64,000 nucleotides of DNA, from contig OZ024743.1 of assembly GCA_964016885.1 (NCBI GenBank), forward strand, positions 366,048,001-366,112,000, read 5' to 3'. Under the pieces are notes generated by a model. The model saw only the letters and a list, made by a program, of their open reading frames with translations, was not told the origin of the DNA and did not search any database. The position numbers and the translations under genes are program-made. The DNA comes from Eledone cirrhosa. Lineage: Eukaryota. This document shows positions 15,775-44,600 of this stretch, piece by piece; position 1 is the first letter of the stretch; each line of letters begins with the position of its first letter.

Positions 15775-16356
15775 TATATAAATATGTGTATGTGTGTATG
15801 TGTGTGACAGAGAGGGAGGGAGAGAGGGAGAGAGAGAGAGAGATGAGAGAGAGAGAGAGAGAGAGAGAGAGAGAGAGAGAGAAAGAGAGAGAGAGAGAGG
15901 CAGGGAGAGAGAGAGAGAGAGAGAGAGAGGTGGATGAGAGAGTGAACGTGTGAAAGATTCACTAATAGGCAGACGCAAAGAGAGTCAAAGAGATAATTTT
16001 TACTGATTCGCTTCACAGACGAGAAAGTAAATATATGTTCGCGCGTATGTGCGCAAGTATATACATATACTTGCACACATACATTTGTGGTTGTGTGCGC
16101 GCGCGCGCGTGTGTGTGTAAGGGAAGGTGAAAAAAGATAGAGTTGTAAGATTAAGAATGATAGATAGATAGATATGTATGTATATATATATATATATATA
16201 TATAGTGTATATATATATATATATATATATATTTGTATATATATATGTATATATATATATATATATATATATATATATATATATATATATATATATATTT
16301 ATAATAATAATAATAAAATGTGGAGGGGAAGCACATGAGTTAGGATATATATATAT

Positions 16357-18939
16357 GAAAACAGGGTAAAAGAGACGATTATTAGGAAGAAAAATATATT
16401 TTTTTCCTTTTTTGTTTCTCTCTCATTTTTCTGGGTTAGAAAATGATTAAAACGAAATGTTTTACTTTGTGTGAAGTGTTAAGGTATTAGTTGATTTATT
16501 TATTATTTAACAATGGCATTTATTTATCTATTTATCTATTTAATAATTGTCTATTACCGGTTTCAGCATTTTTATGCATTATCAAATGATAGTGAAATGT
16601 ATTAGTGTGGTGTCACACATGTTAAAGAGAAGGTGCAGAAAGAATAATGTTATTTACAAACAAGGTTTATGAAGTGAAAAGAAAAAAGAAAAAAGAAAAA
16701 AGAAAAAAGAAAAAAGAAAAAAGAGAAAAGAAAAAAGAAAAAAGAAAAAAGAAAAAAGAAAAAAGAAAAAAGAAAAAGAAAACGGTCATAATATAGAGCA
16801 TAAAAAGTCACTGCGGAAGAAAAAATAATGTTATTTACAGGCATAGTTCTTGAAGTTAAGCAGATCAAAATGTGTTAATATAGCAAGAGTGCTTAGATGA
16901 TACATGATTCCATGATGGAGGCAAATGATGGACTGAGGTTTGATATAATTTTCTTTTTTAGAGAGTTAATATGCAGGGGGAAGCAATTCTTGCTGGATGA
17001 TATTTAATTTATTTAAGAAAAAGGATTAGGTAGGGTGTGAGGGAGGTAACTCTTGTAAATGTTTGATTGTTTGTTGCAGTTTTAGATTGGTCCGATTTTT
17101 AGAGCATTAAGTAGAGGTTGGAATGTGTTAATGAAATATGTTTCCTTATCGGTACGTTGGATGAAAGTAGCGTTGTCTTTGAATTTGTAAATGGGGAAAA
17201 TTTTAAAGTTTGGATGTTGGTTGTGAGCACAATTGGCGATATGTTCACTAAATGCAATCTTTCTGTATTCCTGTTTTTTAATTTGTGATTTATGGACGGT
17301 CATACGTTGACGGAGGCTGTTTTTTATCTGTCCTATGTAGTGCTCTTGACAACCTGAGCAGGTCAAAACATAGATTAGGTTTTCAGATGCACATGTAAAG
17401 TTGTGTTTAAGTGTGAAATGCTGTTCTTGTTTAAAATGGAATGTTGAACCTTCTATTAGATTTATGCATATGCCACATTTATGCATATGCCTTCCGCATT
17501 TTGTTACTGTAGGGTTCATTGTGAGGGTTTGTTGGATTTTGGCTTGTGTGAGGATGTTTTTTTATGGATTTAGGTTGTCTTTTGCTCTTTATGATGTTGT
17601 GTGTTTGGAGGATCTTGTTCATTCTTGGGTCGCTTTTTAGTAAAGGAATGTTCTGGGGGATGGTGTCGAATGCCTCATTGTTGAGGGGGTTGTGTGTGGA
17701 GATGTATGGTAGAGTTTTTTGTTGCGGTTCATTCCTGGGTTTGGGGTGTCTGAATTCCTGGATGTCTAGTTTTAGGGTACGTTGGAATCCATTGTTGATT
17801 AGGGATGGTGGGTAGTTTCTGCTGATAAGTGTGTTTTTTAATTCTTCTAGTCGTGTGTAGCATGTGTATTTATCTGAAACTATTGTGCAGATCCTTCTGG
17901 CTAGGTTATAAGGAATTGCCATTTTGGTATGTCGAGGGTGGCACGAGTTGAATGGAAGGTATTGTTTGGAGTCTGTGGGTTTGTAGTATATGTCTGTTTC
18001 TATTTTGTTGCTTGTTTTCTTGATGAGGATGTCGAGGAAAGGGAGTTGTTCATGGCTGTAATCCATTTTGAATTGTAAGTTTGTGTTGAGTCCATTCAGA
18101 AGGGTTTTAAACTCAGTCTCTATACTTTCATGCCAGAGGATGAAGCAGTCGTCCAGATATCTCTTCCACTTCTTTTCTGTGTTGGTAGAAGTGGTTACCG
18201 TATTTGTCTAGAACTTTGCGGTAGAGAGTGGTTTCCAAATATCCAAGGTTGGCGTATGAGGGGGCCACTTTCGTGCCCATGGCAGTCCCAGATTTCTGTC
18301 TGTAGTATTTGGCATTGAATTCGAAGAAATTGTTTTCCAATATGAATTTGAGTCCCTCCAACACAAATTTATTTAGGGATGCGCTGTGGGAGTTCACTAG
18401 GGAAATTTTCCATCCAGAATTGTATTGCCTCTATACCTAGGTTGTGTGGGATATTGGAATATAAATTGATGACATCAAAGGTTACTAGTAGGGTATGTTC
18501 GTTATTGAGTGTTGTTGGGAGGTGGTTGAGTATGTCAAGGTCGTCCCTTATGAAGCTTTTTATGTGTTTTAAGAAAGGTTTAAGCAGAATATATAGGAAG
18601 TTACTTAGGGGGTGGGTTTCACATGTGGTGCCTGCTATTATGGGTCTTAATTTAAGGTCATCAGGAGGGGGTATATTGATGTAAATGTCTGTGGCTTGCT
18701 TGCAGGCCCTGCCTATTACTTCGCTTTTGTGTGTCTTGGGGATACCGTAGAAGAGGCTGGTTCTGCTTTTAAAATTGGTGATGTAGTTGTATTCCTTGTC
18801 TGTAAGGCCTTCTTTGTAAAGGGTTGTTAGGGATTTTAGGTTTCTCATTATTTTCTGTTGTGTGTAATGTTGGGCCTTTTCATAATATGTTTGGTTTTCT
18901 AGACTTGAGAGTACTAGAGTTGTGTAATAATCTGTCTCC
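16357..18939 (-). mobile_element. 5'-truncated, frameshifted Penelope-like element (Neptune-like), RT + GIY-YIG
   Basis: Four overlapping frames give LRPII, LVTFDVINLYSNIP, SGTAMGTKVAPSYANL, WKRYLDDCFILW, LPFLDI..YYKPTD..SCHP, KCG..KCGIC and NLIYVLTCSGC..YIGQ. Bounded by (TA)n at both ends. Confidence 0.92.
16551..16592 (-). ncRNA. Hammerhead-like motif, U3-A8 core variant, in the PLE 3' UTR
   Basis: CUAUCAU-UUGAUAA-UGCAU aaaa AUGCU-GAAA-CCGG-UA^-AUAG; stem I is imperfect. Confidence 0.55.
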
Positions 18940-41608: not shown

Positions 41609-44600
41609 TATACACACACACACACATATATATATATATATATAGTTCAAGGAGTCAACAAACAGAGGTACAAACAGTTTTATTAGTTTCACGCTTTAAT
41701 ATACATATTCCCCCACCTGAGGAACCAGCAACACACTGGGGGAGGGGGTCTAAATAAGGTGCTTCAGCCCTAGTAATATATTTGCACCCAAGTATGCTAT
41801 TGAGTACTTTCTTCTACCGAATGCCAAATCCAATGGATATGTGAAATGTGTGTGTGTGTCTGAAAGGGTTTTTTTTCCGTCACATTCACGTGTAGCGTTT
41901 TGTTGTTGTTTTCTTGTGATTCTCTATCAAACACACACACAACTCCATAACTCTTATTAACCTTTTCGATGAATAAAAACTTTTTAAGAACGTTTACATG
42001 CACGAAAGAGAGAAAGAGGGACAGATAGATAAATAGCGATAGATTGTTAGATTGATATATAGAAAGAGACTGAGAGAAAGACAGATAGACAGACAGAGGG
42101 GGTGGGAGAAAGTGAAAAGCAGGAGAATGGTTATGAATACACATGTATAAATAAAGTTGTGTTTTTATTAACAAAAAAAAATAAAGCGACAGACAGAAAT
42201 AAAAACACAAAATACAGACAGCTGTCCATCTATATACTACAGCAATAGAGCGCTATGTGACATACATGGTCGTGTTTGTTAAGGATTTCCCTTCGCAACC
42301 ACGTGGTTCTAGGTTCAGTCCCGTAGCGCGGCACAAGTTGATCAATGCATTTGTGAGTGCTCCAGTATGACTGCAGTCTAATGACTAAAACCAGTAAAAG
42401 AATGTGTGTATATGTGTGTGTGTGTGGCAGTGTACTGGCTAGAAACAACTATAATTTAAGGCAAAGTTATCAATACATGAAGTATATATATTTTGATTTA
42501 TTAAAATCGATTGCTCTGACAAGACTAGATTTTGTTTCCTTGTGTGTGTTTGCATATTTCCAACAATAAGAAAGGATTCAGCGTCACATCATCCCGTTTA
42601 TCTACTAAAAATACAAGGACTTAGTAATCATAACTAAAACACCCTATACACGTTTTAACATCGCGTGTCACTTTCCGTTCAACGATTCTCATGTTTCTGC
42701 CTGTCCCTTACTCGCTTCTTCACTCTCTACTTCTCTATTTGTCTTTCTCTCTCTTACTCGTCTTCTGTCTCTTTCATTCCCTCATGCATCCTCTCTCTGA
42801 TTCCCCCCCTCTCTCTCTCTGTATATATCTCTTTCTTATTCGCTTTTTCTGTGTCTATTTATCGCATTATCTTTCTATATATTTTTTTCTTTCATTCATT
42901 CCCTTATTCTCTCTCTCTCTCCCTCCCCCTCCCTCTCTCTATTTATTTATCTATCTTTCTGTTTTTGGTCAAACTTGCTTCAACTGCTCTTTGTACAAAA
43001 GAACACAATACATTCATAGTGACAGAATAAAAAACGATACGATACGCAACTTCATACCCATTACCGGACTTCCAATAAAACTACCCAGCATATAACTATT
43101 ATTGGTGGTGGCGCTACTATTTCTACAACTACCACCACACTTATTAAATCTTATACAATATCATTCATTCACCTAGATTATCATTAATACTACTACTACC
43201 ACCACCACTCTCACTTTTAAATCATATATATATCACGTATACACGGCTCGCATCGGACAGAAAACCGCTCGCTCACATACACACACATGTGAATGTATAC
43301 ATATATATATATCTTTCTTTCACTCACATACCTTCTCCTCTCCTCTCTCTACTTGTCTCTTAAACAATCTTCATTCGAACTTCATTAAAGCCTCCTACTC
43401 TCTCGCTTTGTCTCTGTCTCTCTTTTTCACTCACTGACGTTCATTTTACCCTCTATTTTCTCACCCTGCTCTCTTATAGTTATATGCTATTCCCCTCCCT
43501 CTACACTTTATACACGTACTTTCATATCTCCTATCTCTTTTACAGTCGTATAACAACATTGACACCAATACACGTACATACACATCGATGCTCACACACA
43601 CATACGTACACTCATACAACGAGAACTAACTATACACAGTGTGCGCACACGTTATATACAACTTACGGCGACCAAAAATATTTATTTATATATTCGTTTT
43701 TTTTTTTTATTATTTTATTTGTTTGCTATCCATTTCTTAGTGTTTCTTGCTATTGTAAACACAGTTTCTCGGTTTTTTCATACAACGTGCATCGTCCTGA
43801 AAGGTATATTACCTACGTCATGACTAAAACTTTAACTGAATAATTCAAGGTAAGTGATGAACATTGCTGTTTTGTGTGTGTGTGTGTGTGTGTGTGTGTG
43901 TGTGTGTGTGTGTGTGTGTGTGTGTGTGTGTGTGTATATATATACTCGCACATTGATTAATTCATTGACATTATATATCTATCGATCTATATATGTATAT
44001 AATTTCTATACTTTCATTTATATGTATATATATATATATATATATAATATATATATATATATATATACACATGGCTAAAATAGATATTAAAAAAGTTGAT
44101 TTTTACGAGAAAACTATATCTCAAAGAAAGGACTCAATACATGAATTAGAGTGTGTATATCATTAATTTATTAAGTAATAATGACCTTACATCAATATGT
44201 GTGTGTGTGTGTATAACTTCTCCCTTCAAAAATCCTAGTTATTCGTCTATAAATGAAGTTTTCCTTTTTTAAACTCTGTTTTCATTAACTTTTGAGTATA
44301 ATGTATATTTATTATTGATTTCGTACATAGGTACAAACTCTTCAGTGTAAAGTAGGAGAGATTGTCTGAGCATTCATTCGCTTTCTCAAAGTAATTTAGC
44401 GATCTTCAGAGAAATAATTATTACTCGCGAATTGAAACCGGGTTGCGGGCAGTGTTCGCAGTGGCTTGCCTTGTCCAGAACTAGAGTTCTATAGATTTTC
44501 TTCATAACTACAAGGCCTCAAATATGCTGTTATTTAACACAGGTCAGCAAGGATCCAGCAAACAGACCTATGATCAGGCCCTTTTTGAGAGAAAGGTTTT

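Follow-up and report, generated by a model that had tools for sequence, protein, structure and literature searches.

Why do so many hammerhead ribozyme motifs, from several families, stand side by side between positions 16,350 and 41,700 of a 64,000-nucleotide stretch of the Eledone cirrhosa genome (GenBank assembly GCA_964016885.1, contig OZ024743.1, positions 366,048,001 to 366,112,000 of the forward strand; hereafter the window)? In this study we argue that this region, the nest, is made of insertions, some 16 in number and for the most part 5'-truncated, of Penelope-like elements (PLEs) and of their non-coding derivatives, with 3' ends that lie at (TA)n tracts and carry predicted minimal type I hammerheads. 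We give this explanation a probability of about 0.85; the number of insertion events was obtained by reading the self-comparison of the region. Each ingredient is already published (Cervera 2014, PMC4209133; Craig 2021, PMC8557442), and here and below statements on published work refer to passages of the cited papers. An initial annotation had proposed a PLE origin as well, together with the idea that the nest is a special place that attracts further insertions by itself, and it is this second idea that fared less well.

Predicted minimal hammerheads at the ends of Penelope-like elements

We searched with a strict descriptor of the minimal type I hammerhead (core CUGANGA or its U3-A8 variant, GAAA and UH; at least 4 Watson-Crick pairs in stem II, paired ends in stem III, at least 3 Watson-Crick pairs in stem I) and found 12 matches in the nest and 13 in the whole window. 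This density is far above the controls: 100 dinucleotide block shuffles gave no match, and shuffled background gave 3 matches in 3 Mb against 66 in 1 Mb of real DNA, the background being 100 evenly spaced 10-kb genomic samples (1 Mb in all). Rfam misses these motifs entirely. At its gathering thresholds no hammerhead is found within the window, and among the E-value matches listed (150 of 218) the sole hammerheads are a sub-threshold HH9 pair at 19668-19738(-) and 19967-20037(+) (34.2 bits, threshold 52), a site absent from the initial annotation. TA-hairpin miRNA matches, which dominate the E-value list, were rejected as artefacts.

Nine of the twelve main sites listed at first pass the strict descriptor (19149, 26228, 29010, 29338, 30805, 32462, 34718, 36180 and 41130), but 16551 (2-bp stem I), 39503 (3-bp stem II) and 40161 (damaged stem I) each fail one stem criterion. 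Those three are still members of conserved families, and stem I of 40161 is intact in other copies. Sites at 19720(-), 19985(+), 37047(-) and 15316(+) had been missed, as had 24913(-), which is seen with a relaxed descriptor. The decayed or half motifs called at 31055, 31660, 38920, 41260 and 57916 are correct; what sets the outliers 3082 and 57709 apart is not decay, as each has a core variant that is fixed in its family. The shared plan proposed for the sites holds in part. Sites 16551, 30805 and 57709 do not have the CUGANGA core but U3-A8 (UUGANAA). Stem III is a perfect palindrome in 6/12 and nearly so in 3/12, but not palindromic in the three family E copies (33/66 among background strict motifs are palindromic), and AATAAA follows within 60 nt in one half of the twelve but not in the other, its background frequency being 24/66 strict motifs vs 5% of evenly spaced positions.

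The motifs do come from many families, but fewer of them are independent than their number suggests, as many are inverted twins or belong to one family: 26228/29010, 34718/36180/29338, 41130/41260/19149/40161, 31055/31660, 25640/25866, 30805/57709 and 39503/57916. In addition to the half motif at 38920, clustering counted 21 motif copies, which fall into 12 families; the library used is biased to the window, from which its degenerate entries derive. Family Q (24320(+), 33500(-), 34060(+)) was tried as a split hammerhead and rejected, with no downstream GAAA half and an apparent partner that has other neighbours elsewhere. It is a TA-bounded repeat with a conserved CTGAYGA (CTGATGA) box near its 3' end, and is possibly a half-core PLE end.

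The Penelope-like origin was borne out by the proteins. [quoted passage not shown] The best named relative of one element protein is an Octopus vulgaris protein with 69% identity. In the window, family A is a 5'-truncated, frameshifted Neptune-type PLE on the minus strand (16357..18941) with a broken RT and GIY-YIG gene (17088-18941), and its hammerhead-like motif (16551..16592(-)) sits in the 3' untranslated region (UTR) that ends at (TA)n. The motif has U3-A8, a U10.1-U11.1 mismatch, a CCGG palindrome and a 2-bp stem I, all of them fixed in the family, which has 401 exact copies of it in the genome. The outlier family F2 (57709..57760(-)), which is autonomous, has U3-A8 plus GCAA in place of GAAA, and its motifs flank a Neptune-type gene (locus L297) that is ~58-71% identical to A.

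By self-comparison, the family E insertion (34393..36448) is a 5'-truncated PLE, with a GIY-YIG C-terminus at 35080-35901(+), joined to an inverted copy of its 3' UTR. Its two strict hammerheads are inverted twins at 34718..34762(-) and 36180..36224(+); the latter lies ~285 nt past the endonuclease ORF and has an unpaired nucleotide between 9 and 10.1 and a G10.1-C11.1 pair. A second subfamily, also strict and with a non-palindromic stem III, is found at 29338..29378(-). Elsewhere in the genome family E motifs flank a 1,281-codon open frame. The 144 genomic matches to the family E protein piece that were scored all have 97-100% identity, with open frames of up to 1,281 codons. At least six near-identical units, each with the motif, stand head to tail 4.26-4.28 kb apart (L245-L247, G000:C6:65.20-65.23 Mb), an array that fits a multimeric or circular template.

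Both A and E show the marks of the Neptune/Nematis clade (a CX2-5CxxC linker and two Cys inside GIY-YIG): A and F2 have DKG, Cx4CxxC and two Cys in GIY-YIG, while E has DKS and Cx4CxxC. Further likenesses are a bias to microsatellites and the occurrence of partial tandems and of inverted copies with 5' truncation. Family E differs, however, in a long N-terminal extension and in an RT A-to-B segment that is ~70 aa longer, with 119 residues (L245:1935-5777(-)) vs ~50 in families A and B/J, and that is shared by four of the homologues checked. This stretch is insertion-in-fingers-like, in a PLE with a C-terminal endonuclease, a combination that passages of Craig 2021 do not list for canonical PLEs. 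A Pfam search of the family E protein at E 0.01 gave no match.

Motifs of the B/J superfamily flank a Hydra-type gene at locus L309, and its translations have an RWK-like motif, DKT and a CxCx5C linker without CCHH, which are the Hydra-clade marks of Craig 2021; B/J is assigned to the Hydra type on the strength of these motifs rather than of a tree that includes reference elements. The window holds strict B/J hammerheads at 19149..19214(+), which would be in the pseudo-long terminal repeat (pLTR) of such a PLE, and at 41130..41191(-), a decayed inverted twin of the latter at 41260..41325(+), recognized by self-comparison, and one with damaged stem I at 40155..40230(-). The three protein lineages (Neptune-type, Hydra-type and E as the third) are ~25% identical where they can be aligned.

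Family D (26034..29115) consists of a 5'-truncated copy on the minus strand and an inverted 5'-truncated copy on the plus strand, with TA at both outer ends and strict hammerheads at 26228..26285(-) and 29010..29067(+). Its conserved ~2.9-kb unit has a partial-tandem end and neither an ORF nor a PLE match, and family D is therefore likely non-autonomous, so that at least one of the non-autonomous modules foreseen at first has been found. In being a non-coding hammerhead unit it is similar to non-LTR retrozymes (PMC7229834; Li 2026 preprint), which are thought to use PLE enzymes. In contrast to these, the nest has no short tandem arrays (no tandem units of 150-450 bp, each with a hammerhead, were found in it), and family D, with ~2.9 kb, shows PLE-type truncation and inversion. 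Classical non-LTR retrozymes do occur nearby, as TA-bounded tandem arrays of one 310-nt unit ~20 kb before the window (L169:135-1685) and ~27 kb after it (L173:6897-8137), with 6 and 5 intact hammerheads, respectively, and a CGCG stem III.

The remaining hammerheads of the nest are known by their motifs. Family C is present as strict inverted twins at 19683..19727(-) and 19978..20022(+), the sub-threshold HH9 pair, and other copies show an A-U/U-A swap in stem II. Further strict matches are those of family F (30805..30840(+); U3-A8 core, CCGG palindrome), family H (32462..32571(+); 83-nt branched stem II, CUCGAG palindrome) and family M (37005..37056(-)), the last one absent from the first list. 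Family L (24836..24925(-)) has a long stem II and passes the relaxed descriptor only; family I (39503..39549(+)) has a 3-bp stem II and a hairpin stem III with a central palindrome. Decayed forms are the inverted pair of family K (25615..25912; 25640(-), 25866(+)), which by eye is like family D and has no homologue among the fetched genomic loci, the inverted pair of family G (31046..31680), with a degenerate core at 31055(-) that is common to several copies and a half motif at 31660(+), and the 3' half motif of family P (38913..38950(+)), its 5' half replaced.

Clustering at TA tracts

Insertion at (TA)n, as originally suggested, is well borne out. Among the 96 top-scoring, hence not randomly drawn, copies of families A, F, E and H, 93 have a TA tract 60-420 nt 3' of the motif, and TA is found at the 5' junction of 35 of the 90 resolvable ones. 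In the background, 57/66 strict motifs are followed by a TA tract at no more than 400 nt, vs 23% at evenly spaced positions and 41% upstream of the motifs. Partial tandems of pLTRs and inverted 5'-truncated copies are both present, and same-family background pairs are divergent in 11 cases, convergent in 2 and tandem in 2 (n=15); the divergent pairs match the inverted 5'-truncated copy that is typical of PLEs. We also observed short inverted arms that face each other across a TA tract at 4/62 TA sites here vs 4/1,353 in the background (window positions 32164, 38843, 39374 and 40830, with 29852 and 34498 added by BLAST), which possibly arise from fold-back priming at palindromic TA.

How could such a nest have come about? 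From established PLE biology, the PLE endonuclease would nick (TA)n, and reverse transcription would begin at the 3' end of the RNA and usually stop early. The hammerheads are predicted to cut the element RNA, likely as dimers. Because the motif lies ~50-250 nt from the 3' end, nearly every stub would retain it, and hammerheads would thus mark PLE debris; most nest copies are likely inert stubs. Each insertion would split one TA tract into two, so that TA-rich patches might gain targets and collect further families.

Is the nest then a special place? Its strict motif density is 4.7 per 10 kb vs 0.66 in the background, ~7-fold above the mean, but 5/100 background samples have at least 4 strict matches and 3/100 have at least 5, and the claim of a singular locus does not stand. 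The number of distinct families per 10 kb is overdispersed (p=7e-4) and tracks the number of TA tracts (rho 0.62); the 5-6 families per 10 kb of the nest are matched by 2/100 background samples. Clustering across families, another part of the first proposal, is thereby supported, as it is by the flanks of young copies, with 2.5 other-family motifs per 10 kb vs 1.4 at fixed positions (p=7e-4). The landing pad that reinforces itself is not: sampling weighted by TA sites gives 3.4 such motifs per 10 kb. Since clustering near young copies stays under this level, shared TA targeting is enough to explain it. The same elements might hence have piled up passively, by independent TA-seeking insertions into DNA that had been rich in TA beforehand or was under weak selection, and without any feedback; adjoining 10-kb stretches with 112-246 TA tracts and no strict motif (L174, L175) agree with this. 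On the other hand, many inserts have TA tracts at both ends, which multiplies targets, and the TA-delimited modules of the nest are in many cases repeats of high copy number. Passive accumulation is a serious competitor, although we hold it to be the less probable course, and feedback via split targets is plausible.

Several observations weigh against the explanation by PLE insertions as a whole or in part. No PLE gene was linked to family C, G, H, I, K, L, M or P; for H none was found upstream in 4 extended loci, and the other seven were not examined at length. Single-strand folding gave z below -2 for only 3 of the 9 motifs folded, and for several motifs the predicted fold differs from the hammerhead. 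The standard dimer route would fit family E poorly because its stem III is non-palindromic (self-duplex at -1.7 and +1.4 kcal/mol). With the strict descriptor the cross-family excess near young copies is 1.44-fold and not significant (p=0.07), and TA tracts may be cause or effect.

Core variants, cleavage and rival functions

Do the hammerheads matter to the elements that carry them? It may be that most of them are non-catalytic, carried along as passengers or serving the pLTR as structural handles, and that the elements have no need of cleavage for their spread. Two families depart from the canonical core (C3UGANGA9 / G12AAA15 / U16H17, or U3-A8). F2 has spread with GCAA, in 3,972 exact copies vs 24 with GAAA, and the outlier family at 3082..3130(+) has fixed U4C (16/16 copies seen, with CCGAAGA in 15/16). 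In addition, stem I of family A has only 2 bp, Naiads are reported to thrive without canonical motifs (Craig 2021), and Cervera 2014 describes low in vitro activity. U3-A8, U10.1-U11.1 and U4C are natural variants already published; for a substitution of A13 we found no example in main-text passages and literature searches, the supplements and the Lunse et al. survey of PLE hammerhead variants lying outside this scope.

Against mere passengers stands the conservation of the fold. Core and stems are retained in about 40 motif families (41 clusters) that have no sequence relation to each other, and both members of C3-G8 change together to give U3-A8, which has been reported to be active. The covariation across genomic copies that was looked for is found in stem II of B/J. 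In an alignment of 27 distinct rows, made of 26 motifs collected with a pattern that sets no condition on pairing in stem II and of two copies from the window, both sides change in 7/9 pairs, amounting to 31 cells vs 10.2 after shuffling (0 of 500 shuffles), a contrast inflated by the relatedness of the copies. A C-C mismatch in stem II is kept in 24/26, stem I varies on one side only, and stem III is invariant, partly because the collection pattern fixes it. We consider it rather unlikely that the motifs are mostly passengers.

A host-maintained locus, i.e. a small-RNA trap or dsRNA source in which inverted PLE ends are kept for silencing, is quite improbable: many inverted pairs would yield hairpin RNA if transcribed, and the short inverted arms at TA sites are enriched here (4/62 vs 4/1,353), but comparable motif density is seen in 5/100 background samples and inverted twins are a normal product of PLE insertion. 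That AT-rich repetitive DNA yields these motifs by chance, for which the failure to reach Rfam gathering thresholds might speak, is refuted by the shuffles, by family conservation and by a reversed-pattern control for B/J (1 match vs 56,810) and need hardly be considered.

The rest of the window holds further outliers and repeats. A canonical minimal hammerhead, strict and absent from the first list, lies at 15309..15355(+). The motif at 6264..6350(+) belongs to a family with a long stem II and is decayed, two other copies of the family being better paired, and a 3' half motif of family I is found at 57916..57960(-). The window is rich in microsatellites, with 52 (TA)6+ tracts in 16,350-41,700 and a (CATA)n tract of 1 kb within the nest (20941-21994). 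A ~190-nt repeat resembling short interspersed nuclear elements has many copies (5596-6060, 7387-7581, 11396-11595, 20423-20604, 36634-36904 and others) and >100 matches per Mb of background. Mariner-like fragments with a Mos1-type helix-turn-helix (PF17906) form a palindromic inverted pair at 37289-38091, fragments of a non-PLE RT (RVT_1) at 53831-55276 are GC-rich relative to the window, and a degenerate 5S rRNA-like copy (9636-9750(-)) and a weak tRNA-like match (41550-41619(-)) were also noted.

Genome-wide load

How much of this is peculiar to the window? The background extrapolates to ~198,000 strict motifs in the 3.0-Gb assembly (bootstrap 126,000-279,000). Exact pattern counts over the whole genome are 56,810 for B/J with a pattern that ignores stem II, 14,948 for E and 2,203 for D, the last counting a 39-nt part from the 5' side of the motif only; their sum, 73,961 matches in which the first core box is canonical, sets a floor. 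Published counts of minimal motifs are ~2,000+1,300 in Schistosoma, 4,000 in coelacanth and 9,000 in Xenopus (Cervera 2014), ~5,000 in mussel (Cervera 2020, PMC7229834) and 14,255 retrozymes in axolotl (Li 2026 preprint). The counts presented here exceed these figures, which were obtained with different methods and, in Cervera 2014, with other descriptors and older assemblies. Hydra-clade PLEs are known from few families (Craig 2021), whereas in this genome a single superfamily accounts for 56,810 matches to its motif.

The motifs are otherwise much like the pLTR hammerheads of metazoan PLEs described by Cervera 2014, with a minimal or palindromic stem III, an unpaired nucleotide between 9 and 10.1, U3-A8, pairs on opposite strands at distances of 100-700 bp, a majority of solo motifs from truncated PLEs and many families per genome. 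They differ in that U-U/A-A is often found at 10.1-11.1, in stems II of great length and in the fixed GCAA core, features not seen in the passages compared. PLEs tend to insert into or beside existing PLE copies (Weinberg 2019, PMC6765202). Neither cephalopod PLE hammerheads nor multi-family TA nests appeared in the titles and abstract openings returned by literature searches, and the word 'ribozyme' does not occur in an Octopus vulgaris repeat paper (PMC13282606).

Taken by itself, the nest is ordinary PLE debris, and it warns against assuming a special function wherever ribozymes cluster in TA-rich DNA of animals. Less ordinary are the genome-wide scale and the fixed core variants. We tentatively suggest, while rating it below even odds, that this octopod genome has the heaviest hammerhead load in the literature compared (~200,000 intact motifs in ~40 or more families), led by a Hydra-clade element that has expanded massively, with TA nests that feed themselves and autonomous sister families with fixed altered cores (U3-A8 with GCAA, and U4C) that would provide either a test of the need for cleavage or a new active core. 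About one intact hammerhead per 15 kb would be a major hidden layer of RNA. Young PLE families with long frames and with canonical, covariant and altered cores coexist in this genome, and they offer material for testing the role of the hammerhead and the targeting of TA tracts.

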